A stretch of 64,000 bases of DNA from Bacteroidales bacterium (GTDB lineage: Bacteria; Bacteroidota; Bacteroidia; Bacteroidales; CAIWKO01). The notes below the pieces were generated by a model that was not told where the DNA came from, ran no database searches, and worked only from the letters and a program-made list of their open reading frames with translations. Where the stretch lies: NCBI GenBank assembly GCA_023228145.1, contig JALOBU010000001.1:9463-73462 (forward strand), written 5' to 3'. A program made the translations under genes and the position numbers. This document shows positions 1,938 to 13,308 of the stretch, one piece after another. The first letter of the stretch is position 1, and the number at the start of each line of letters is the position of its first letter.

Positions 1938-2705
1938 TTAAAAATCCATTTCCAGTAATGTAGGGCAGTGGTCGGAATGTTTTGCCTCGGGAAGAATTAC
2001 AGCCCGTTTCATAAGGTGTTTTATAGGTTCACTTACCATCTGGTAATCAATTCTCCATCCCAGATTTTTCGCCCGTGCATTTGCCCTAAAACTCCACCAG
2101 GTGTATTGATGGGGCTCTTGGTTGAATTCTCTGAAAGAGTCAATAAACCCTGAATCTATAAATTTAGAAAGCCACTCCCTTTCTTCAGGTAAAAAGCCCG
2201 AACTGGTAGCATTTCGTATGGGGTCGTGTATGTCTAAAGGTTTATGACAAATGTTATAATCGCCGCAAATAACAAGATTGGGCCTTGTTTTTTTAAGTTC
2301 GCTCACCCATTCCAGAAAGTCCTCAAGCCATATCATTTTAAATGCCTGCCTTTCATCGCCACTGGAACCTGAAGGATGATAGACACTTATAACAGAAATA
2401 TCTCCAAAATCAACACGCAACATCCGCCCTTCATCATCATATTTCTGAATGTTCATGCCGTAAATAATATTGTCTGGCTTATGTTTGGTAAGAATCCCAA
2501 CACCGCTGTATCCTTTTTTCTTTGCCGAAAACCAGTAATTATGGTATCCGGCAGCTTCAAATTCAAGCACAGGTATCTGGTCGGGCTGTGCCTTGGTTTC
2601 CTGAAAACATACAATATCTGGGTTTACATTATGTATCCACTCCAACAATCCTTTTGACAAAGCAGCACGAATCCCGTTCACATTATAGGTAACAATTTTT
2701 CTCAT
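1938..2705 (-). CDS. xth: exodeoxyribonuclease III (AP endonuclease)
   Basis: MRKIVTYNVNGIRA..., CFQETK, ICGDYNICH and a terminal SDHCP motif, over 255 aa. This is the ExoIII/EEP family pattern. Confidence 0.9.
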   Translation of the reverse strand: MRKIVTYNVNGIRAALSKGLLEWIHNVNPDIVCFQETKAQPDQIPVLEFEAAGYHNYWFSAKKKGYSGVGILTKHKPDNIIYGMNIQKYDDEGRMLRVDFGDISVISVYHPSGSSGDERQAFKMIWLEDFLEWVSELKKTRPNLVICGDYNICHKPLDIHDPIRNATSSGFLPEEREWLSKFIDSGFIDSFREFNQEPHQYTWWSFRANARAKNLGWRIDYQMVSEPIKHLMKRAVILPEAKHSDHCPTLLEMDF

Positions 2706-2761
2706 TTTTTCGAAATTTTTATGCTAAACTAATCATTTTATAAATGTTCCGTTTTAAAAAT

Positions 2762-2769
2762 TAAATTTG
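2762..2769 (+). promoter_or_regulatory. candidate Bacteroidota sigma-A -7 box (TAAATTTG)
   Basis: Matches TAnnTTTG and ends 20 nt upstream of the sigma-factor start codon at 2789. Confidence 0.35.
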
Positions 2770-2788
2770 CATAACAAATCAGGTTATT

Positions 2789-3385
2789 TTGGTGCTTTTT
2801 TTCAAAAAATCAAAAAGTGAAAAAACTGAACTGCTGCCGGATCAGGAACTGATTGAATTATACCGGAAAACCAACGATACGGTTTATATCGGTGAGTTAT
2901 TCGACCGTTATGTTCATCTAGTGTATGGCATTGCATACAAATATTTTGAAAGGGAAGACGACCGCCGTGAAGCCGTGATGCAGGTTTTCGACAGGTTGTA
3001 TGAAGCGCTGAAAGAGCATGAGATAACAAATTTCAAAGCCTGGCTTTACAGTGTTGCAAAAAATCATTGCCTGATGATATTGCGAAAGGATAATACCGTA
3101 ACATTTAATGACCAGATTCAATTGAAAAATTTTCAGCAGGATTTTATGGATTTTGAAGGAGAAATGACTCTAAACCATATTAACGATGAAATATTAGATA
3201 AAAAACTACCGGAAGCCATAAAAAAATTAAGCGATGAACAAAGAATTTGTATTGAATTGTTTTATCTTCATGAGAAATCCTATCAGGAAGTTGTCGAAAC
3301 AACAAATTTTTCATTAAACCAGGTTAAAAGTTATATACAAAACGGAAAAAGAAATTTAAAAATCATGCTCGAAAACAACAGATGA
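2789..3385 (+). CDS. RNA polymerase ECF-type sigma-70 factor
   Basis: Region 2 (FDRYVHLVYGIAYKYF...AWLYSVAKNHCLMILRK) and region 4 (LSDEQRICIELFYLHEKSYQEVVE) are present. There is no ATG near the 5' end, so the start is probably TTG 2789 or GTG 2792. Confidence 0.85.
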   Translation: MVLFFKKSKSEKTELLPDQELIELYRKTNDTVYIGELFDRYVHLVYGIAYKYFEREDDRREAVMQVFDRLYEALKEHEITNFKAWLYSVAKNHCLMILRKDNTVTFNDQIQLKNFQQDFMDFEGEMTLNHINDEILDKKLPEAIKKLSDEQRICIELFYLHEKSYQEVVETTNFSLNQVKSYIQNGKRNLKIMLENNR

Positions 3386-4605
3386 AAACTCTTGATAAAC
3401 ATAATGATATTTTTAACTCCTCTGGCTGTATCACTCAGGAAGCTTTTGTTAAGTACCTGAATAACGGACTGCCTGAACCGGAAAAATATCTTTTTGAGCA
3501 GCATCTTGCTGTATGCTTGTTGTGCAGCGAAGCTTTGGAGGGTTTTGAAAAAGCCCCGGATAAAACAGCTGTTTATAATGAAATCAGTGAAGCCATGCTT
3601 GAATTAAATAAGAAGTTGTTTTTGAAGCAAACATTAAATGTTAAAAAAAGCGGACTTAAGAGAACATTAATTGCAACATCAGCTATTGCAGCCAGTATTT
3701 TGCTAATTACCGGATTGTATTTTCTTTTTAACATACAGACCAAAGACATAAAGCAGGAAATGGCTATTGTTCAGGAAAAAGAAATGAGCAAAAGCCCGGC
3801 TTCAGAAAAATATAATGAAGAAATTTTATCTGATATTGCTTCTGAACAAAAAAACAGGCAGGAAACACAGGAATCATTAAAATACGAAACGTATCAAAGG
3901 TCTGTCACAAAGATACTAACTGATATTGATTATGATAATAACAATGATATAGAAAATTCCGGGGAGAAGGTTGAAGAGAAAAGTACAGGTATATATGCCG
4001 GGTTGTTGGATGACGGTGTGGTTTTTGGCGCTAATGATGTTGACAAGGTTCAGGTAGATACTTCAACAAATCTTGTTCCGGGCCAGGCAGTTGCAGTAGT
4101 TACCGAAGAGGAAATTGCAGGAGATGTTGCTATAGGAAAAGCATTGACCAAAAAGACAAGCCAGGAAAAAAGTATTGTATTGTCGAAAGCCGAAACATCA
4201 AAAAACGATGATGTAACGACTGATGAAACAGTTTCCCGCACAGAAGACCAGTCGGGAATAACTCCGGCATTATCTTTATATGATAATTACAGATATAAGG
4301 AAGCTATACCAAAGTTTAAAGAGGTGATAAGGGGAAATAAAATTGATTATCAGGCAATATATTTTCTTGGCATGTCATATTATTATGAAGGCAAGAAAGA
4401 CTCGGCATTAATTTATTTTGACCAATTGCTTAAAAAGAAAATCCACACATACTACGAACAGGCATTATGGCAAAAAGCTATAATTCTTGAGGAAAAGAAT
4501 GAAAAAGAACAGGCAAAGGAATTATTCAATGAAATTATTAAACGGGGAGGTTCATTAAAAATTGATGCCAAATTAAAGATGGATGAACTCAACAAAACCA
4601 AATAA
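3382..4605 (+). CDS. membrane-spanning ZAS-type anti-sigma factor with TPR-like C-terminal domain
   Basis: ATGA overlap with the sigma stop codon. HLAVCLLC (H-x3-C-x2-C) near the N-terminus. One TM helix (LIATSAIAASILLITGLYFLF). C-terminal TPR-like repeats (YQAIYFLGMSYYYEGKKDSALIYFDQLL...). Confidence 0.7.
   Translation: MKTLDKHNDIFNSSGCITQEAFVKYLNNGLPEPEKYLFEQHLAVCLLCSEALEGFEKAPDKTAVYNEISEAMLELNKKLFLKQTLNVKKSGLKRTLIATSAIAASILLITGLYFLFNIQTKDIKQEMAIVQEKEMSKSPASEKYNEEILSDIASEQKNRQETQESLKYETYQRSVTKILTDIDYDNNNDIENSGEKVEEKSTGIYAGLLDDGVVFGANDVDKVQVDTSTNLVPGQAVAVVTEEEIAGDVAIGKALTKKTSQEKSIVLSKAETSKNDDVTTDETVSRTEDQSGITPALSLYDNYRYKEAIPKFKEVIRGNKIDYQAIYFLGMSYYYEGKKDSALIYFDQLLKKKIHTYYEQALWQKAIILEEKNEKEQAKELFNEIIKRGGSLKIDAKLKMDELNKTK
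3502..3525 (+). other. H-x3-C-x2-C zinc-binding anti-sigma (ZAS) motif
   Basis: Codons CAT CTT GCT GTA TGC TTG TTG TGC translate to HLAVCLLC. Confidence 0.65.
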
Positions 4606-5893
4606 AACCTATCCCGAATCAGCCATAAATAAAGTTTTTGCACTTGTTGATTGCAATAATTTTTATGCTTCCTGTGAGCGCGTTTTCAATCCGAAGCTTG
4701 AAAAAAAACCTGTTATTGTTTTATCCAATAATGATGGCTGTGTTATTGCGCGTTCTAACGAAGCCAAACTTCTGGGAATAAAAATGGGTGCACCTGCGTT
4801 TGAGTTTAAATCTCTTATAGAAAAAAACAAGGTGCATGTTTTTTCTTCAAATTTTGCTCTTTACGGTGATATCTCAAACCGGGTGATGAATATACTTTAT
4901 GACATGGCTCCTGATGTGGAAATATATTCCGTGGATGAAGCTTTTCTTGACCTCTCAAGCCTGAAAAATGAAAATATTTCAGCATTTGCAAAAAAGATAC
5001 GGATAACTATCAAACAATGGGCAGGAATTCCTGTTTCGGTGGGGGTTGCCCCAACAAAAACCCTGGCAAAAATTGCAAATCATCTTGCAAAAAAGAATTC
5101 CTCTTATGCAAACGTGATGAACTTCTGGGAACATGATGATACAGATAATTTGTTGAAACATATCCCTGTTACAGAAATATGGGGTGTAGGGCGGGCCTAC
5201 GGGAAGTTCCTTCAGAATAAGGGCATAACGACCGTGTTTGATTTTAAACAGGCAGATGAACCATGGGTTCGCAAGCATATGGGTGTTACGGGGGCACGGA
5301 CATGGATGGAACTACGGGGAGTTTCATGCCTTCCGCTTAATATGGTAATTCCCGACAAACAAAGTATTTGCACATCACGTTCTTTTGGAAAAACATTAGA
5401 AAATTATGAAGATATAGAACAGGCAACAGCTACCTTTGTTTCCCGTGCTGCCGAAAAATTAAGACAACAATATTCCTGTGCTCGTTCCGTAAATGTTTTT
5501 GTGATGACCAACCGTTTTTCAGACACGCCGAAATATGTGAATTCTATCATGGTTCAGCTGCCTGTGGCAAGCAACATTACTTCGGAACTGGTTCATTATT
5601 CATTAAAAGGGTTGAAAAAAATATTTTGTAAAGGTTATAAATACAAAAAATCCGGCATAATTCTCAGCGACCTGATACCTGAGAATCAATTGCAATATAG
5701 CTTGTGGGATGATACAAACCGCCGGAAAATGACAGAATTAATGAGAATAGTTGATAATATTAACAAAGAAGTAGGTCAGGACGCTGTGAAGCTAGCTGTA
5801 CAAGGCACACGGCGCAAGTGGAAAATGCATCAGGAAAGATTATCTCCTCAATATACAAGCAGGTGGTCGGATATTTTAACAATAAAGATTTAA
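4583..5893 (+). CDS. umuC: Y-family translesion DNA polymerase, UmuC-like (Pol V catalytic subunit type)
   Basis: FALVDCNNFYASCERVFNP...PVIVLSNNDGCVIARSNEAKLLGIKMG...FSSNFALYGDISNRVM is nearly collinear with E. coli UmuC. ATG 4583 lies 23 nt inside the anti-sigma gene. Confidence 0.9.
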   Translation: MNSTKPNKTYPESAINKVFALVDCNNFYASCERVFNPKLEKKPVIVLSNNDGCVIARSNEAKLLGIKMGAPAFEFKSLIEKNKVHVFSSNFALYGDISNRVMNILYDMAPDVEIYSVDEAFLDLSSLKNENISAFAKKIRITIKQWAGIPVSVGVAPTKTLAKIANHLAKKNSSYANVMNFWEHDDTDNLLKHIPVTEIWGVGRAYGKFLQNKGITTVFDFKQADEPWVRKHMGVTGARTWMELRGVSCLPLNMVIPDKQSICTSRSFGKTLENYEDIEQATATFVSRAAEKLRQQYSCARSVNVFVMTNRFSDTPKYVNSIMVQLPVASNITSELVHYSLKGLKKIFCKGYKYKKSGIILSDLIPENQLQYSLWDDTNRRKMTELMRIVDNINKEVGQDAVKLAVQGTRRKWKMHQERLSPQYTSRWSDILTIKI

Positions 5894-5927
5894 ACAAAAT
5901 ATACCGTTTTAGTTATAAAACTTATTG

Positions 5928-5935
5928 TATATTTG
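5928..5935 (+). promoter_or_regulatory. candidate -7 box (TATATTTG)
   Basis: TAnnTTTG match in the 159-nt spacer, 118 nt upstream of ATG 6053. Confidence 0.3.
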
Positions 5936-6052
5936 CAAGGTATTGCAACCTTTAGGGTGATTTTTTCGTCTAAAAACCTGCAAATAAACATGAATACCAA
6001 ATAAAAAAAATAAAAAATACGTTTTTTAGGAAGTAACTGATAATTATTCCCC

Positions 6053-8494
6053 ATGAGAGTCAAAATAAAAAATTTTCTTGTTTTATTAATAATAAGCTTT
6101 TCTGTCACGCAAGTTTTTAGCCAGCCGGGATGCGTTGGGGTTACTATTACAACCAACGGTGGTAACGATATTACACTACCTTGTAATGAACCATGTATTA
6201 CATTGGAAGCAACAACTGTACAAACCAGCGGGGCAACAACTACTTATGAAGTTACTTCAATTCCATATAATCCGCCTTATCCATATACAGGAGGAACGCT
6301 TATCCCCGTTTATTATGATGACGATTGGAGTCCTGTAATTAATATTCCGAATTTTCATTTTTGTTTTTTCAGTCAGCCTTATGATAATCTTATCATTGGC
6401 GATAATGGTGTAATTTCTTTTAATACTGCAGCTGCCGGAGGTTTCTGCCCTTGGACTATAGATTATGGAATCCCCTGTAACTATGGGTCCCCAATGCACA
6501 TTTTCGGAGCCTTTCATGACACATATTTACCCGCCGGTGGAAACATGTATTGGTCAGTTGAAGGTACAACACCTTGTCGAGCCTTTGTTTTTAAATTCAA
6601 TCAGGTTGCACATTATTCATGCAACAGTATTAAAACTACACAACAAATTGTGTTGTATGAAACAACAAATATGATTGATGTATATATTCAGTCAAAACCA
6701 GTATGTTGGGATTGGAATGACGGATATGCAGTAGTTGGTATTCAAGATCAGAGTCAGTCAATTGCTTATACTGCCCCAGGGCGGAATGCGACAGCATGGA
6801 CAGCTACTAATGAAGCATGGCGTTTTACTCCTGTAGGGTCATCTTATGTTGAAACATACTGGTATGAAGGAACAAACCTGATAGGCACAGGAACAACCGT
6901 TAATGTGTGCCCCACAGGGACCACTACTTATACTGCAAGGGCAAATTATAATACTTGTTGGGGTGCGGTAATCCCTGTTGAAGACAATATAACTGTTACC
7001 ATGGCAGGAGGCTCGGTTAGCCTCTCTCCAACAGATCCTACGATTTGCAACGGTGAGTCAATACAAATAACAGCATCAGGTTCTGATAGTTATGTGTGGG
7101 CTCCGGCTACAGGCTTAAATCAAACTACCGGTTCAACAGTTACCGCGTCACCAACCACGACTACTACATATACCGTTACAGGCTCAACACCATTATGTAC
7201 TGCTTCAAATACGATTACAGTTACAGTAAACCCTTTACCTAATATTTTGATAAGTCCTCCGGGTGGCTATATTTGTATTGGAGATTCATTAACCATGACT
7301 GCTTCAGGGGCTGATACTTATGTTTGGTCGCCTGACAATAGCCTGACGACAACCTTCGGCCCCACAGTTACTGCATATCCACAAACACCGGTCACATACA
7401 CTATTACAGGGACTGATACAAACCAGTGTGTCAATACAACTACTGCCACGGTTGTGGCTTCCAATGGACCTACCATTATGATAATGGCTTCCCCTGAAGA
7501 TATTTGCCCGGGAGATACAAGTACTCTTACAGTATATAGTGCTGCACAAATTTATACCTGGCAACCTGGAATTTCATTGTCAAGTAGTACCGGGCCTATT
7601 GTAGAAGCTTTCCCATTAACAACTACAACTTATACCGTAACTGCCGACAATAACGGATGTACTTCAACAGAAACATATACATTGGAAGTTAAACCTTTAC
7701 CTTTGGTTGATTTTACTGCTGATGTCAGAGAAGGTTGTGCTGGTTTTTTTGTTCATTTTACGGATTTAACGATTCCTGATGCCATTAGTTGGGCATGGAA
7801 TTTTGGTGACATTATTCCTTACGGAAATACTTCTATATTACAAAACCCGGCTCATTATTATGCTGATGCCGGTTCATTCGGAGTAGGCCTTACAGCAACT
7901 TCTTCCAACGGTTGTAAAATGCGCATGTACTATCCTGATTTTATTACTGTTTATCCGAAACCTATTGCAAATTTTGCAGCTAACCCACAACCGGTTAATG
8001 AACTGGAACCTTTGGTATGGTTTGCCGACCAATCAATAGGAGCTACTATATGGAACTGGTATTTTGGTGATTATACAACTCTGGATAATAATTCCAATGC
8101 ACAAAATTCCACACACGTATATTCAGATACAGGGACGTTCTATCCTGTTCTTATTGTTTTCAATAGTTATGGTTGCTCCGATACTATAATTGGAGAGGTT
8201 ACTGTTGTTCCTAATATAACATTTTACGTCCCCAACGCTTTTACTCCAAATAATGATGCTAAAAATCAGGTTTTTAAACCTCAGGGAGAAGGTATTGATT
8301 TGTCATCATTTGAAATGCGGATTTACGACAGATGGGGCCGACAGGTTTTTCACACCAGAGACATGGAAAATGGCTGGGACGGAAAAACCAGCGGAAATGT
8401 GCAGGCCGAAGGAGTCTATTCGTGGATTATAAGTTATTATGATATCCGGTATAAGTTTCATATACATAAAGGCCACGTTACTTTGATATATTAA
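6053..8494 (+). CDS. T9SS type-B C-terminal-domain cargo protein (adhesin-like, Ig/PKD repeats)
   Basis: Signal peptide. Repeated about 80-aa T/S-rich Ig-like modules (C..GES/D..L.A.GA..Y.W.P). Two PKD-like modules (WNFGD...). Terminal FYVPNAFTPNNDAKNQVF...RIYDRWGRQVF...NGWDGK...GVYSWII. Confidence 0.85.
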   Translation: MRVKIKNFLVLLIISFSVTQVFSQPGCVGVTITTNGGNDITLPCNEPCITLEATTVQTSGATTTYEVTSIPYNPPYPYTGGTLIPVYYDDDWSPVINIPNFHFCFFSQPYDNLIIGDNGVISFNTAAAGGFCPWTIDYGIPCNYGSPMHIFGAFHDTYLPAGGNMYWSVEGTTPCRAFVFKFNQVAHYSCNSIKTTQQIVLYETTNMIDVYIQSKPVCWDWNDGYAVVGIQDQSQSIAYTAPGRNATAWTATNEAWRFTPVGSSYVETYWYEGTNLIGTGTTVNVCPTGTTTYTARANYNTCWGAVIPVEDNITVTMAGGSVSLSPTDPTICNGESIQITASGSDSYVWAPATGLNQTTGSTVTASPTTTTTYTVTGSTPLCTASNTITVTVNPLPNILISPPGGYICIGDSLTMTASGADTYVWSPDNSLTTTFGPTVTAYPQTPVTYTITGTDTNQCVNTTTATVVASNGPTIMIMASPEDICPGDTSTLTVYSAAQIYTWQPGISLSSSTGPIVEAFPLTTTTYTVTADNNGCTSTETYTLEVKPLPLVDFTADVREGCAGFFVHFTDLTIPDAISWAWNFGDIIPYGNTSILQNPAHYYADAGSFGVGLTATSSNGCKMRMYYPDFITVYPKPIANFAANPQPVNELEPLVWFADQSIGATIWNWYFGDYTTLDNNSNAQNSTHVYSDTGTFYPVLIVFNSYGCSDTIIGEVTVVPNITFYVPNAFTPNNDAKNQVFKPQGEGIDLSSFEMRIYDRWGRQVFHTRDMENGWDGKTSGNVQAEGVYSWIISYYDIRYKFHIHKGHVTLIY
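8216..8491 (+). other. T9SS type-B sorting domain (gliding-motility-associated C-terminal domain)
   Basis: Last 92 aa: ITFYVPNAFTPNNDAKNQVFKPQG...IYDRWGRQVFH...WDGK...GVYSWIISY. Confidence 0.8.
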
Positions 8495-8518
8495 AAAACT
8501 TCTCTTTTCCTTTTAGTA

Positions 8519-9184
8519 ATGTGCGGAAGATTTTCTTTTGCAGTTAACGAAAAAATTATTGAAGAACACTATGGGTTTTTACCACAGGAGTATAAACCAA
8601 GATATAACTGTGCCCCGGGGCAAACCCTTGCTGTGATTACAAATATAGGGAACCCTGCTTTCAATTATTATCGTTGGGGATTAATTCCTTTCTGGGCACA
8701 AAATGCATCTCTCGGACAAAAACTGATAAATGCCAAAGCAGAAACTCTCACTGAAAAACCTGCCTTCAAATATTCTTTTTCTTACCAACGCTGCCTGATT
8801 CCTGCTGACTCATTTTACGAATGGTCACAAGACAAAATGAAAACACCTTACAGAATTTTTATAAAAAACTTCCCTGTTTTTTCAATGGCAGGTATCTGGA
8901 GTGAGTGGAAAAATGAAAATAACATGATTTACTCTTTTGCTGTCATAACCACTGAAGCCAATGAATTCATTAAACCAATTCATAACAGAACGCCTTTAAT
9001 TTTTGCAACTAAAGATGAGGAATTAAAATGGCTCTCAGGTGAAGTCCAGGATGCCTTGTTTCTACTTATTAATAACAGCCCAATACATTTGGAATCTTAT
9101 CCTGTTTCAAAATTGATTAATGTTGCGGGAAATGATTCGGAAGCATTACATAAGCAAGTAAGTGAAGACGGAAAGCTTTTTTAA
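8519..9184 (+). CDS. SOS-response-associated peptidase (SRAP/YedK/HMCES family, abasic-site processing protein)
   Basis: N-terminal MCGRFS with catalytic Cys2. RYNCAPGQ, INAKAETL and IPADSFYEW blocks. 221 aa. Confidence 0.9.
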   Translation: MCGRFSFAVNEKIIEEHYGFLPQEYKPRYNCAPGQTLAVITNIGNPAFNYYRWGLIPFWAQNASLGQKLINAKAETLTEKPAFKYSFSYQRCLIPADSFYEWSQDKMKTPYRIFIKNFPVFSMAGIWSEWKNENNMIYSFAVITTEANEFIKPIHNRTPLIFATKDEELKWLSGEVQDALFLLINNSPIHLESYPVSKLINVAGNDSEALHKQVSEDGKLF

Positions 9185-9191
9185 ATAATAC

Positions 9192-9223
9192 AAAAGGCTG
9201 TCTCGAAATTGAGATAGCCTTTT
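9192..9223. terminator. hairpin between convergent SRAP and small lipoprotein genes
   Basis: AAAAGGCTGTCTC (9192-9204) pairs with GAGATAGCCTTTT (9211-9223) with one G.U wobble and a 6-nt loop. A/T tracts flank both sides. Confidence 0.65.
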
Positions 9224-9246
9224 CACATAAAAAACAATTCCTTAAA

Positions 9247-9471
9247 TTACTCTGTTTCGCAAGAAGACTCAACTCCATGCCTATTTGCATCTGCTTTAAC
9301 CATGTCTTTATATTCTTTTATTTTTTTACTTGAGCCGCATTCCTGCGGGTAAGCAACGGTTTGAGTTTGTCCAAGGTATTCGTATTCATAACTACAGGTA
9401 ACACATTTTTTGCATGATGCGAATACAAAAGCTATAAAAACTGTGGCAGAGATTAAAATTATTTTTTTCAT
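9247..9471 (-). CDS. small Cys-rich lipoprotein, unknown function
   Basis: MKKIILISATVFIAFVFASC lipobox. The mature part of about 54 aa has 5 more Cys (KKCVTCSYEY...ECG...SSCETE). Confidence 0.55.
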   Translation of the reverse strand: MKKIILISATVFIAFVFASCKKCVTCSYEYEYLGQTQTVAYPQECGSSKKIKEYKDMVKADANRHGVESSCETE

Positions 9472-9534
9472 GGATGGATGATTTTCTTTTTTTATGCAAA
9501 TATAAATTATTTTTTTTATGCCTTTATAAAAATT

Positions 9535-10521
9535 TTAATATGACTGTAATAAGTTACATCCCCTTGTGTCGCTATGGTCAAATCTGCCTGAAATGGTAAA
9601 ACTTCCGTTATGATGTACTACTCCTAAATCTCCGGTAGCAATAAATGAACATGTGTATATATTGGAAAGATCAATAATATTAACGCCACCGGTTTTTTCT
9701 GCCTGTAAAATAGTAAGGGGGTCATGTGCGTCTCGTATAAAAATTTTCATCCATGGAGGTGGCACAAAAATGCCTTCTCCTGATGAATATGCCTGAGATA
9801 ATAGCTCACACATGCTATATTCAGAATGTGTTTTTTTGATGAAAAATTTATTTTTCAAACACTCATGGACTTCTTCCCGGGTCATTTCTTTTCTTTTTCC
9901 TTTCATGCCGCCGGTTTCAAGGATAATAACGTTTTCAAGTGGTAAAGAATATAATTCGGCAAAATCCATCAACGCGTATGTTATTCCAAACACTATTACA
10001 GTTTTTTTTCTTTTTTTGTTAAGTAGTTTTACCAGAGAGGGTATGTTATTTAGATAGAAGCCGCTTTCGGAGGTTTTTGTTTGTTTAATCAGAAAATCAA
10101 GCATAAATGACAGGGATGATTCGGGGAGGGAAATGTAATCGGGGCATAAAGCTGCAATAATATAATTTTCGGGGGAACCATAAAAATGATTGAAGCATTT
10201 CAGGATAGTTTGCTGATAAAGAGAAATTGAAAAAATCAAATGCCTGCTTCTGTTCCCCGTAGTTGTTCCACTGCTTAAAAATATATGTTCCGGCTTATCA
10301 CGAACACTTGCAACAGATTGTGTTTTGTAAAATTCAATGGGCAAAAAAGGAATGTTTTGATATGAACTAATTTTATGAGTTTCAACTCCAAGAAGATTAA
10401 CAAATTCATGATACACGCCATTATTAGCATATTGAAATTTAAAAACTTCAATAGCGGCATCATTGAAATCAGAATCAGAAAGGATATTGAATATTTTTAA
10501 TTTTGCAGGGAGATTCGTCAT
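9535..10521 (-). CDS. LuxE/PaaK-like acyl-protein synthetase / acyl-adenylate-forming family protein
   Basis: N-terminal FKFQYANNGVYHEFVNLLG...NIPFLPIEFYK, then SSGTTTGNRSRH (AMP-binding-like P-loop) and ETGGMKGKRKEM. This pattern fits the stand-alone LuxE-like proteins of Bacteroidota. Confidence 0.65.
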   Translation of the reverse strand: MTNLPAKLKIFNILSDSDFNDAAIEVFKFQYANNGVYHEFVNLLGVETHKISSYQNIPFLPIEFYKTQSVASVRDKPEHIFLSSGTTTGNRSRHLIFSISLYQQTILKCFNHFYGSPENYIIAALCPDYISLPESSLSFMLDFLIKQTKTSESGFYLNNIPSLVKLLNKKRKKTVIVFGITYALMDFAELYSLPLENVIILETGGMKGKRKEMTREEVHECLKNKFFIKKTHSEYSMCELLSQAYSSGEGIFVPPPWMKIFIRDAHDPLTILQAEKTGGVNIIDLSNIYTCSFIATGDLGVVHHNGSFTISGRFDHSDTRGCNLLQSY

Positions 10522-10566
10522 TAAAAAATTTTTATTAATTTTATAATCAAATTAACAGAATACTTA

Positions 10567-11079
10567 ATGAGATTATACTATTGTTTTGTTATTTTATTAT
10601 TGCTTGCTGGATTGTTTTTCTTATCTGGTTGTATAAAAGAAGAAGAGTTCCCTCCCGAACCTTATATTGAATTTATCGGCCTGGCAAAAATACAAAACGC
10701 AAACAACATAGACGACAAAGGTATTTTAAAAATATCATTTACGGATGGTGATGGAGATATGGGCTTGGCCGATAACGACACCATGCAACCATTTGACAAA
10801 TCAAGTATTTATTATTATAATTTTTTTATCAAGTATTTTGAAAAACAGCATGGACAATTTGTGGAAGTGCCACCGGCCGTTACTTTTAATTCCAGAATTC
10901 CAGAACTTAAATCTAACAACATAAACGGAGCGATAAAAGGTGAAATAGAAATTGAATTATTTATTAATAATCCTTTTTCGCCTTACGATACTGTCCGGTT
11001 TGAGGCATATATTGTTGACCGTGCGTTGCATCACAGCAACACTATTACAACCAATGAGTTAATTGTTAAAAAACACTGA
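10567..11079 (+). CDS. hypothetical lipoprotein
   Basis: Signal peptide with lipobox (FFLSGC). DGDGDMG acidic motif. No family recognised. Confidence 0.5.
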   Translation: MRLYYCFVILLLLAGLFFLSGCIKEEEFPPEPYIEFIGLAKIQNANNIDDKGILKISFTDGDGDMGLADNDTMQPFDKSSIYYYNFFIKYFEKQHGQFVEVPPAVTFNSRIPELKSNNINGAIKGEIEIELFINNPFSPYDTVRFEAYIVDRALHHSNTITTNELIVKKH

Positions 11080-11081
11080 TT

Positions 11082-11525
11082 TTATCGTGTTTTATGTATG
11101 GTGTAAGTTACAACACCCCATACGGAAACATCCATACTTTCATTTATCTCCAAGGGCTTGAAGTCGGGGTTTTCCGGCATTAAATAGAGTTTGTTATTTT
11201 CTTTAGTCAGGCGTTTTACGGTAAATTCTCCATTCACAACACCTATCACAATTTTATTGTCAGAAGGTTCAATAGAACGATCAACAACAAGAATATCCCC
11301 GTCAAAAATGCCGGCATTTTTCATAGAATGTCCGCTGACTTTAATAAAAAATGTTGCTGATGGGTTTTTTATCAGGTACTCATTCAGGTCAAGTTTTTTT
11401 TCGATAAAATCTTCTGCGGGAGATGGAAATCCGGCAGAAATTTTTGTGCTAAAAAAAGGAAGCTCGGTTTTATTTCCCTGAGCAGGCTTAAAGATTTCAA
11501 GCTTGATTGGCTGCTCTTTTTTCAT
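11082..11525 (-). CDS. umuD: UmuD-like S24 self-cleaving peptidase (Pol V accessory subunit type; no HTH domain)
   Basis: FFSTKISAGFPSPAEDF...LIKNPSATFFIKVSGHSMKNAGIFDGDILVVDRS...GEFTVKRL is collinear with E. coli UmuD. This includes the cleavage-site context (AG), the Ser in GHSM and the Lys in VKRL. Confidence 0.9.
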   Translation of the reverse strand: MKKEQPIKLEIFKPAQGNKTELPFFSTKISAGFPSPAEDFIEKKLDLNEYLIKNPSATFFIKVSGHSMKNAGIFDGDILVVDRSIEPSDNKIVIGVVNGEFTVKRLTKENNKLYLMPENPDFKPLEINESMDVSVWGVVTYTIHKTR

Positions 11526-11529
11526 TTCA

Positions 11530-13308
11530 TTATTCCTCTGAAAACTGTTTTAATAATTTTCTGTATTCCGAAAAAACATTTGCTCTTGATACGAAACCAA
11601 CATATTTGCCATCGTTTACCACTGGTATATTATAGTTGTCTGTTTTTTCAAATTTTTTTGCAATTTCTTCCATGGATTCGTCCGGGCTGACAGTAGGTGA
11701 GGGCATAAACATTAAATCCCGAACTATAAGCTTTCCATATAATTCTTGCTTGAAGACAACATTTCTGATATCGTTAAGGAAAACAATGCCTAAAAGATTA
11801 TTTTCATTGTCAACAACAGGAAAAATATTACGTTCCGAACGGGCAATCACTTTTACCAGTTCTCCGAGGTAATTATCCGGGGAAACAGTAAGGAAATTAG
11901 TTTCAATTAGTTTGTCAATTTTCATCAGTGTCAGCACTGCTTTGTCTTTGTCGTGTGTAATGAGTTCGCCTTTTTCGGCAAGTTGTATAGCGTCAACAGA
12001 GTATGGGAAAAAGTATTTAACAGTAATATACGAGATGGAGGCAGTAATTATCAAAGGGACCATCATATTATACCCATTAGTGATTTCTGCTATAAGGAAA
12101 ATTCCTGTCAGAGGTGCGTGCATAACACCTGCCAGTAAACCGGTCATGCCTGCCAGGGAAAAATTTATTTGTGGAAGATTGGAAATATTAAAATAAGTTA
12201 TGATGCTTGTAAATAAATACCCACTTACTGCCCCAAGAAAAAGTACAGGACCAAAAATACCCCCCACACCTCCCACACTGAAGGTAATAGATGTTGCCAC
12301 AGCTTTAAAAAGGATTATTCCAAAAAGTAATATAATTATGATGATAATATTATGTTGGTATCCAGAGAAGAAACTGTTATTGAATATAAAATCCTGTTTT
12401 CCGTTCAGGCAGGAGTTAATGTGATGATAACCTTCTCCGTATAGTGATGGAAAGATTAATATAAGTCCTCCCAGTATAGTGCCTCCTGCAATTAGCTTCC
12501 AATAGGAATTTTTTATTTTAATAAAAAACTTATCAGACAGTAATAGAATCCTGGATAAATAGACCGATACCAATCCGCAAAAAATGCCCAGTAGTGCAAA
12601 AAAGGGCAGGTCGGCAAATTTAAAATTTTCAATATGTTCAACAAGATAAATTACGTTTGTCCCAAGAAAAAAATAAGATGTCAATGTTCCTGTAACTGAA
12701 GCAATCAACAATGGGAGTAAAGATGCCATGGAAAGGTCTATCATTAAAATTTCAAGTGAAAAAAGCACACCGGCTATGGGAGCTTTGAACAATCCAGCTA
12801 TTGCACCTGATGCACCACATGCAATCAGCAGTATGATGTGTTTGTATTTGAGCCCCATCCATCTTCCGGTATTTGAGCCTATGGCTGCCCCGTTGTTCAC
12901 GGCAGGCCCCTCCATTCCTACCGAACCTCCAAAGCCTAAGGTGATAGAGCTTAGTATGGCGGGCGCGAAAAGGTTTTTAAACGAAATAAATCCGTTTTGT
13001 TTTGATATGGCTTCAAGAATACCGGGGATACTATAACTTAGTTTCTGTTTTATTAAATATTTTTTTATTAAAATAACTATTAATATACCAAACAAAGGAA
13101 AAAAGACATATAAATAATTGGGGCCATCTTTGTTGGGGTTTAACGTGATTATATTTTCAATAAAATAAATCATGTTTTTTATAAAAACTGCGACGAGGCC
13201 GGATATAAAACCGCAAACGATGCTGAGAAAAATCACAAACTGCCGGTCGCTGATATGTTTAAGCCGCCAAATAAGAAGTTTGTAAAAAAGTCGTTTGCCG
13301 GAAATCAT
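11530..13308 (-). CDS. ClC-family voltage-gated chloride channel/antiporter with C-terminal CBS pair
   Basis: About 10 or more TM helices. GGSVGMEGP and GIFGP selectivity-filter-like motifs. Two CBS-like modules in the C-terminal 140 aa. Confidence 0.85.
   Translation of the reverse strand: MISGKRLFYKLLIWRLKHISDRQFVIFLSIVCGFISGLVAVFIKNMIYFIENIITLNPNKDGPNYLYVFFPLFGILIVILIKKYLIKQKLSYSIPGILEAISKQNGFISFKNLFAPAILSSITLGFGGSVGMEGPAVNNGAAIGSNTGRWMGLKYKHIILLIACGASGAIAGLFKAPIAGVLFSLEILMIDLSMASLLPLLIASVTGTLTSYFFLGTNVIYLVEHIENFKFADLPFFALLGIFCGLVSVYLSRILLLSDKFFIKIKNSYWKLIAGGTILGGLILIFPSLYGEGYHHINSCLNGKQDFIFNNSFFSGYQHNIIIIIILLFGIILFKAVATSITFSVGGVGGIFGPVLFLGAVSGYLFTSIITYFNISNLPQINFSLAGMTGLLAGVMHAPLTGIFLIAEITNGYNMMVPLIITASISYITVKYFFPYSVDAIQLAEKGELITHDKDKAVLTLMKIDKLIETNFLTVSPDNYLGELVKVIARSERNIFPVVDNENNLLGIVFLNDIRNVVFKQELYGKLIVRDLMFMPSPTVSPDESMEEIAKKFEKTDNYNIPVVNDGKYVGFVSRANVFSEYRKLLKQFSEE

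Follow-up and report, generated by a model that had tools for sequence, protein, structure and literature searches.

Bacteria normally restrain their error-prone polymerases through tight repression by the SOS system. In the umuDC operons of Escherichia coli and of Bacteroidetes, the latter with a non-canonical LexA (PMC8565304), umuD is located directly upstream of umuC, the gene for the catalytic subunit of polymerase V (Pol V), and the operon is under LexA/SOS control. We analyzed a 64,000-nt stretch of DNA from a Bacteroidales bacterium (contig JALOBU010000001.1, positions 9,463 to 73,462; hereafter the window), in which umuC is instead the third of three overlapping genes, behind the genes for an extracytoplasmic function (ECF) sigma factor and for a candidate zinc-binding anti-sigma (ZAS) factor. 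UmuC and UmuD do not differ from the proteins of the canonical operon, their catalytic and self-cleavage motifs being intact, and, as in many umuDC-SRAP clusters, a gene for an SOS-response-associated peptidase (SRAP) is found nearby. However, umuD is located 5.2 kb away from umuC, on the other strand and behind a ClC chloride channel gene, and umuC has neither a separate start and promoter nor a CTAA-N5-TTAG or conserved GGA-N5-TCC operator. In the host clade, a small group of uncultured Bacteroidales, the catalytic subunit gene appears to have been detached from umuD and from LexA-type operators, and it has long been part of a stress sigma/anti-sigma operon on the evolutionary scale.

The first two genes resemble the SigR-RsrA, RpoE-ChrR, and SigL-RslA systems, with which they share a sigma factor made of regions 2 and 4, a coupled anti-sigma gene, and an H-x3-C-x2-C motif with an upstream cysteine. 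RslA is membrane-anchored, a property common to the anti-sigma candidate in the window, which differs from the described systems by a large periplasmic TPR domain and by a zf-HC2 match that stays below the Pfam cut-off. We found no member of the ZAS group with a Y-family polymerase as third cistron in the literature searched. In E. coli, expression of dinB depends on RpoS, and sigma-E is required for stress-induced mutation. The logic would be the same in the window if its sigma factor drives the operon, with a stress sigma factor raising a translesion polymerase independently of LexA, but the link in E. coli is a promoter in trans, whereas the window has a fusion into the sigma factor's own operon and no recognized sigma-dependent promoter. 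Loss of the Porphyromonas gingivalis ECF sigma factor PGN_1108 (PG1318) results in a mutator phenotype, as cited in PMC4324044. This is also a Bacteroidales ECF sigma factor linked to mutation frequency, but sign and mechanism differ, as there it is loss of the sigma factor that raises mutation. In the literature searched, nothing relevant surfaced for ECF or anti-sigma factors in combination with umuC, translesion synthesis, Y-family polymerases, or dinB, and the main text of the ECF reclassification paper does not mention a DNA-repair or polymerase context. A preliminary description of the locus knew of no polymerase hard-wired to a stress sigma factor, and none came to light here. All parts are of known kinds (ECF sigma factor, ZAS-type anti-sigma factor, UmuC, UmuD, and SRAP), but their arrangement is not described in the literature searched.

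Layout of the three-gene operon

The open reading frame (ORF) map and direct reading of the sequence reveal a plus-strand run of three consecutive genes encoding an ECF sigma factor, an anti-sigma candidate, and UmuC (Table 1). Their contexts in other genomes were traced from anti-sigma and sigma homologues to the respective contigs, resulting in a clade sampling of 12 contigs (loci numbered L). Tier A comprises loci with sigma factors 75–79% identical (the window, L001, L081–L083, L084–L086, L087, and L096, and also the decayed L094 (= L095)), and tier B those with sigma factors 61–68% identical (L090/L091, L092/L093, and L098). The sigma stop codon and the anti-sigma ATG share the sequence ATGA (3382–3385), a 4-nt overlap that had been pointed out in the preliminary description and that is retained at all tier A and tier B loci and at the distant locus L099. 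The umuC reading frame contains a TAA at 4574–4576 and then the ATG at 4583 as its first start, and there is no further ATG, GTG, or TTG in this frame between ATG 4583 and FALVDCNNFYASCE. We thus agree with the earlier view that this ATG, 23 nt inside the anti-sigma 3' end, is the sole usable umuC start. It is invariant in 8/8 aligned junctions, and umuC overlaps the anti-sigma gene by 26 nt in L081, compared with 23 nt in the other six lineages.

TAnnTTTG is the consensus −7 box of the Bacteroidetes primary sigma factor. No plus-strand match to it exists within 2770–5430, and the 8 terminator-like hairpins of the region do not exceed the number expected by chance (9.1), with none located at a gene junction; the reported lack of a box or hairpin between the three genes therefore stands. 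That the three cistrons form one transcription and translation unit, with predicted co-transcription and translational coupling, is well supported by the sequence. Coupling of umuC to the anti-sigma gene is suggested because the umuC ATG is invariant and embedded in the anti-sigma tail, leaving no spacer.

The sigma factor contains regions 2 and 4 only (Pfam Sigma70_r2 and Sigma70_r4_2). With 72.7 bits, it exceeds the cut-off of the ECF superfamily model TIGR02937 (42.9), but NCBIfam places it in no named subfamily, as all subfamily and equivalog models score below their cut-offs (e.g. TIGR02985, 80.7 versus 126.4). Its TTG start codon is kept across tier A, and an ATG is found at the equivalent place in tier B.

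In the second protein, the motif HLAVCLLC (3502–3525) is present as previously noted, and we located an additional cysteine, Cys-16. The four residues C16, H41, C45, and C48 are all kept in 8/8 tier A and tier B orthologues and are missing in the distant L088 homologue. zf-HC2 is the only family consistently matched by the N-terminal domains of these proteins, with sub-threshold matches in 8/9 members (best E = 1.1e-4); the window protein scores 18.8 bits and does not reach the family gathering score of 22.2. A profile of the N-terminal domain returned no meaningful match among PDB sequences. An AlphaFold2 model of residues 1–92 is helical (mean predicted local distance difference test score of 68), with four helices in residues 4–57 and a long fifth helix at 61–85. 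The top PDB matches in Foldseek are RslA chains from Mycobacterium tuberculosis (3hug), with target TM-scores of 0.52–0.57 and non-significant E-values of ∼5. Hydropathy (Kyte-Doolittle mean) peaks at 2.03 at IATSAIAASILLITGLYFL, with no other segment above 1.6, and the sequence KKSGLKR precedes this helix, placing basic residues on its N-terminal side. The C-terminal 110 residues match TPR models, with additional weak matches to NCBIfam CpoB and YbgF that do not reach the respective cut-offs. The single transmembrane helix and TPR-like outer half proposed earlier are both recovered in these analyses.

Orthologues of the anti-sigma candidate are 30–37% identical overall, with conserved ends and a variable middle. 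The linker (3742–4266, approximately residues 121–295) is acidic, of low complexity, periplasmic, and very fast-evolving, with many indels; two genomes with 77% identical sigma factors and 84–88% identical xth products share only 36% identity over the whole anti-sigma protein. The C-terminal tail, D/N-E-L-x-K-x-x-stop, is conserved also in tier B, which lacks umuC. The second protein can reasonably be considered a membrane-anchored anti-sigma candidate of class I with a ZAS signature, because the motif is present in 8/8 orthologues, zf-HC2 is matched below threshold in 8/9 members, and the gene is coupled to that of the sigma factor. The zinc-binding anti-sigma reading of the preliminary description thus holds for the signature and the sigma coupling and falls short at the zf-HC2 gathering score. 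Its further step to a redox switch is not supported, as a zinc-finger signature on a membrane anti-sigma factor with a periplasmic TPR domain is by itself insufficient to indicate redox sensing. With its TPR domain in the periplasm, the protein is more suggestive of a signal from the envelope side.

The third protein matches the UmuC model NF002955 over its full length (436.8 bits, cut-off 431), and its VDCNNFYASCE and SVDEAFLD blocks, with the catalytic acidic residues, align to the Pol IV structure 7yll_A. UmuD and UmuC of the window look functional, as far as their sequences go. UmuCs of the triad carry an N-terminal extension of ∼17 residues (4583–4633 in the window), and relatives from outside the clade align only from residues 13–20. 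The extension is partly encoded in an alternative frame of the anti-sigma tail. We surveyed 80 genomes with the closest UmuC relatives (45–68% identity). The gene directly upstream of umuC is umuD in 65 and something else in 13, whereas 1 has too little upstream DNA, which bears out that umuC normally sits straight behind umuD. A sigma/anti-sigma pair precedes umuC in 1/80 relatives, the Bacteroidales metagenome-assembled genome L001. The 13 without an upstream umuD occupy varied contexts: in L024 (488–1519), umuC follows an unrelated 342-residue ORF after 2 nt, and in L072 (5367–6008) it overlaps an unrelated 213-residue ORF by 8 nt, umuD being upstream of neither. Capture of umuC behind unrelated genes may recur.

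Conservation and history of the triad

The order sigma, anti-sigma, umuC is found in seven lineages (the window, L001, L081, L084, L087, L096, and L099) and is not restricted to one genome, a case that the preliminary description had named as a refutation. Tier A loci read xth (minus strand), sigma, anti-sigma, umuC, and a PKD/CHU_C gene, followed, where the contig is long enough, by SRAP, umuD (minus strand), and ClC (minus strand). The distant loci L099/L100 (sigma 54%, anti-sigma 31%, and UmuC 60.5% identical) contain the triad with the same 23-nt overlap, and their upstream neighbors are unrelated sugar-biosynthesis genes. Tier B has the same collinear block without umuC, umuD, and SRAP or recognizable remnants of them, while sigma and anti-sigma are kept. 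No umuC remnants were detected in the tier B spacers with tblastn (E up to 1) or short-word blastn. We considered orf163 of tier B as a degraded SRAP gene and rejected it, as no similarity was found. More remote sigma homologues (L088, 43% identical; L097, 51%) have other partners and no umuC.

L094/L095 share 85–87% DNA identity with L096 and have intact sigma, anti-sigma, and SRAP genes, but internal deletions remove 948 nt of umuC and 266 nt of umuD (at 11867–11884 and ∼17590 in L094/L095, compared with 11876–12823 and 18528–18793 in L096). Both Pol V genes are inactivated together in this lineage. Across the clade, umuC and umuD each appear to form the final cistron of an operon unrelated to them, and where one has been lost, so has the other. 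These deletions, and the absence of umuC and umuD from tier B, would fit a neutral relic, that is, a umuC gene in the course of being lost that makes no contribution in the present genome. We regard this as very unlikely for the window, where umuC and umuD are full length with their catalytic motifs present. In addition, UmuC is 61–74% identical across triad lineages in which sigma is 57–79% identical, which fits purifying selection, and the joint loss of umuC and umuD implies a joint function when they are present.

In a neighbor-joining tree of the sigma factors, L099 groups with tier B, opposite tier A. UmuCs of the triad are monophyletic in the UmuC tree, and their sister is the Lentimicrobiaceae locus L002, in which umuC-SRAP is found between DJ-1 (minus strand) and LuxE (minus strand) and umuD is not upstream. 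The trees indicate that the triad is ancestral to the clade, because triad lineages are found on both sides of the deepest split in the sigma tree. In the simplest history, a umuC(-SRAP) unit already apart from umuD was fused behind the sigma/anti-sigma pair in the clade ancestor; tier B subsequently lost umuC, and in L094 the gene is in decay. The umuC start would have been recruited within a pre-existing anti-sigma tail, because this tail is conserved in tier B without umuC, and recruitment inside the tail matches the N-terminal extension peculiar to triad UmuCs. As sigma and anti-sigma persist without umuC in tier B or with a deleted umuC in L094/L095, umuC would be an accessory passenger rather than an integral output of the pair.

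Two other histories were rejected. An inversion of 4583–11081, which would rebuild ClC-umuD-umuC-PKD-SRAP on one strand, is at odds with tier B and L094, which keep the same block order and orientation, tier B even without umuC and umuD. A recent, clade-specific insertion of umuC is contradicted by the triad in L099, with its 54% identical sigma factor and different context, and by the sigma and UmuC trees.

Promoters, operators, and the expression of umuC

The putative operon promoter contains the housekeeping-type −7 box TAAATTTG, which is located 19–23 nt upstream of the sigma start in 9/9 tier A and tier B loci. In L099, TAATTTTG is found 28 nt before the sigma start in an unrelated intergenic region of 367 nt, and a housekeeping-type −7 box is the sole conserved element upstream of sigma (10/10 loci, 19–28 nt). 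As TAnnTTTG turns up in the window at a rate of only ∼1 in 1,250 nt on each strand, its presence at this place in two independent contexts is unlikely to be due to chance. A scan for AAC-N14–19-CGT over the ten orthologous upstream regions revealed no shared AAC..CGT-type motif, although this sigma factor's own consensus may differ, and the ten regions share no dyad containing G or C; the only shared dyads are A/T-rich and consistent with a housekeeping promoter. An ECF-type promoter upstream of sigma was therefore not recognized, as TAnnTTTG alone is conserved across the ten regions. The preliminary description had proposed to derive such a promoter from orthologous regions and had the ECF sigma factor driving the umuC operon. 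No ECF-like bipartite motif is shared, and the conserved upstream element is of the housekeeping type (TAAATTTG or TAATTTTG), which lends that proposal no support.

Control by LexA, which the same description had named as a rival, was examined using the two operators of the non-canonical Bacteroidetes LexA, CTAA-N5-TTAG and GGA-N5-TCC (PMC8565304). The 64-kb window contains no exact CTAA-N5-TTAG, and sites with one mismatch are below chance (13 found, 33.6 expected). GGA-N5-TCC occurs as a single site at 4255 that is not conserved among relatives. As read from its sequence, the triad is without a LexA-type operator of either Bacteroidetes kind. In the aligned xth-sigma intergenic regions of tiers A and B, the block GCTAAACTA (2723–2731) is near-invariant; it resembles half of a CTAA-N5-TTAG box, and a second half-site is not present. 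Read on the minus strand, this block is TAGTTTAG, the putative −7 box of xth.

A third source of umuC transcripts would be an unrecognized promoter in the 3' part of the anti-sigma gene, in which case the overlap would be a compact junction without regulatory coupling. Promoters within upstream genes are common, the window has four TAnnTTTG-like sites with one mismatch 162–304 nt before the umuC ATG, and an exact box is found in L081 at a distance of 231 nt. However, the seven lineages do not share the position of any of these sites, and in 5/7 the anti-sigma gene contains no exact TAnnTTTG at all. That the umuC ATG is invariant and set into the anti-sigma tail with no spacer also argues for coupling, and we consider an internal promoter improbable.

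UmuD appears to come from a different transcript. Its gene is located 4 nt behind the stop codon of the ClC/CBS channel gene, and umuD has the same position in L081, L082, and L096, with a 3' fragment in L001. The gap between ClC and umuD is 1 nt in L081 and L096. Alignment with E. coli UmuD (8gmt_B) reveals that the Ala-Gly cleavage site and the Ser/Lys catalytic motifs SGHSM and VKRL are kept. The ClC transcript probably carries umuD, so that the second Pol V subunit, too, would be encoded by the final cistron of an operon unrelated to it.

The explanation we favor, with a probability of about 0.55, is a single transcript from a housekeeping promoter, coupled translation of UmuC, supply of UmuD from the ClC operon, and post-translational gating. 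In the clade ancestor, umuC, which like its counterpart in the Lentimicrobiaceae sister L002 was already apart from umuD, would have lost its own start codon and promoter, and it now appears to start at the ATG within the last anti-sigma codons. UmuC would then be made only from the sigma/anti-sigma transcript, because its own start and promoter are lost and its ATG lies within the anti-sigma end, and its translation would fall to ribosomes still engaged on the anti-sigma gene or newly arrived at its stop codon. The transcript most likely begins at the housekeeping-type promoter with TAAATTTG (2762–2769). By default, this would result in a low, roughly constitutive level of UmuC that follows sigma/anti-sigma expression, outside of SOS/LexA control. 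UmuD would be supplied separately, as the last cistron of the ClC channel operon, and Pol V activity would be gated mainly after translation by RecA-stimulated self-cleavage of UmuD.

Several points weigh against this explanation. The housekeeping promoter is a putative one, called by its match to a consensus, and autoregulation is common among ECF sigma operons. The 83-nt intergenic region is short but could conceal an ECF promoter of AT-rich consensus, which might also overlap the −7 box, and TAAATTTGCA is invariant in tiers A and B to a somewhat greater degree than a match to TAnnTTTG would demand. The fusion has been kept over deep divergence, with xth, SRAP, and umuD within 9.6 kb, which hints at something beyond neutral hitch-hiking.

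In a rival reading, which follows the preliminary description, the ECF sigma factor transcribes its own operon, and envelope or redox stress inactivates the anti-sigma factor and thereby induces umuC along with the sigma gene, which would result in stress-sigma-controlled translesion synthesis and mutagenesis without LexA. Many ECF operons are positively autoregulated, as is generally known, the triad has been retained since the clade ancestor, and a LexA-type operator is not present. The ZAS signature of the anti-sigma candidate is conserved, the neighbors xth, SRAP, and umuD all act on abasic or damaged DNA, and P. gingivalis PGN_1108/PG1318 offers a Bacteroidales precedent for an ECF sigma factor tied to mutation rate (cited in PMC4324044). 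Conservation upstream of sigma is limited to the housekeeping −7 box, however, with no ECF-like promoter, and the pair is kept both in tier B, which has no umuC, and in L094/L095, whose umuC carries the deletion. In addition, umuD, which is needed for Pol V, is part of another operon with its own housekeeping-type box, and the sensor domain is a periplasmic TPR domain, the zinc-finger signature alone being no proof of redox sensing. We hold autoregulation by the sigma factor to be possible but doubtful. The stronger version, in which an envelope/redox ECF sigma/ZAS switch directly induces umuC and also coordinates xth, SRAP, and umuD as a sigma-based substitute for SOS that ties translesion synthesis and mutagenesis to extracytoplasmic stress, we consider unlikely. 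If the sigma factor does drive the operon, the locus would represent physically hard-wired stress-sigma-controlled mutagenesis, of which we found no described example. If it is not the driver, as in the favored explanation of a housekeeping transcript, the locus still illustrates a way for a lineage to operate polymerase V with no SOS control at the level of transcription.

Neighboring genes

The features of the locus are listed in Table 1.

Table 1. Features of the sigma/anti-sigma/umuC locus and its surroundings (window coordinates)
Feature	Position	Strand	Basis and remarks
xth (exodeoxyribonuclease III / AP endonuclease family)	1938..2705	−	Pfam Exo_endo_phos, E = 1.9e-32; divergent from sigma gene
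Near-consensus −7 box TAGTTTAG, putative promoter of xth	2724..2731	−	one mismatch; 18 nt before xth ATG
Housekeeping-type −7 box TAAATTTG, putative operon promoter	2762..2769	+	TAnnTTTG match; 19 nt before sigma start
ECF-type sigma-70 factor, 198 aa, TTG start	2789..3385	+	Pfam Sigma70_r2, Sigma70_r4_2; TIGR02937
Membrane anti-sigma candidate, 407 aa	3382..4605	+	zinc-finger-type N-terminal domain, one transmembrane helix, variable linker, periplasmic TPR domain
ZAS zinc-finger signature C16-x24-H41-x3-C45-x2-C48	3427..3525	+	sequence motif; includes HLAVCLLC
Single transmembrane helix, approximately residues 94–120	3661..3741	+	hydropathy
TPR repeats, approximately residues 296–393, YbgF/CpoB-like	4267..4560	+	Pfam TPR_6, TPR_2, TPR_16
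Overlap of anti-sigma gene and umuC	4583..4605	+	23 nt; umuC ATG within anti-sigma tail codons D-E-L
umuC, Y-family polymerase V catalytic subunit, 436 aa	4583..5893	+	NF002955; IMS, IMS_HHH, IMS_C, DUF4113
−7 box TATATTTG, putative promoter of PKD/CHU_C gene	5928..5935	+	box scan; within 159-nt spacer after umuC
PKD/CHU_C type IX-secreted surface protein	6053..8494	+	Pfam
SRAP (YedK-type)	8519..9184	+	Pfam SRAP, E = 8e-60
umuD, 147 aa, intact	11082..11525	−	NF007621, 173 bits, cut-off 110
ClC chloride-channel/CBS gene	11530..13308	−	Pfam
−7 box TATTTTTG of ClC gene	13335-13328	−	TAnnTTTG scan; 20 nt before ClC start

Neither tRNA genes nor Rfam families at the gathering threshold were found in the 64-kb window. 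The divergent xth gene adjoins the sigma gene at all tier A and tier B loci and is not found in this position at L099. The PKD/CHU_C gene is conserved downstream of the anti-sigma gene, whether umuC is present or not. SRAP follows it after 24 nt (spacer 8495–8518) and is present in tier A and not in tier B; in L002 and in other relatives, SRAP is located directly behind umuC. Because umuC and SRAP adjoin each other in the sister Lentimicrobiaceae locus L002 (5992–8158), they may represent the older arrangement, with the PKD gene as a later insertion between the two. The genes for abasic or damaged DNA, xth, umuC, SRAP, and umuD, are found in a 9.6-kb part of the window (1938–11525) that surrounds the sigma/anti-sigma pair, interleaved with unrelated genes, and of these four, tier B retains xth alone.

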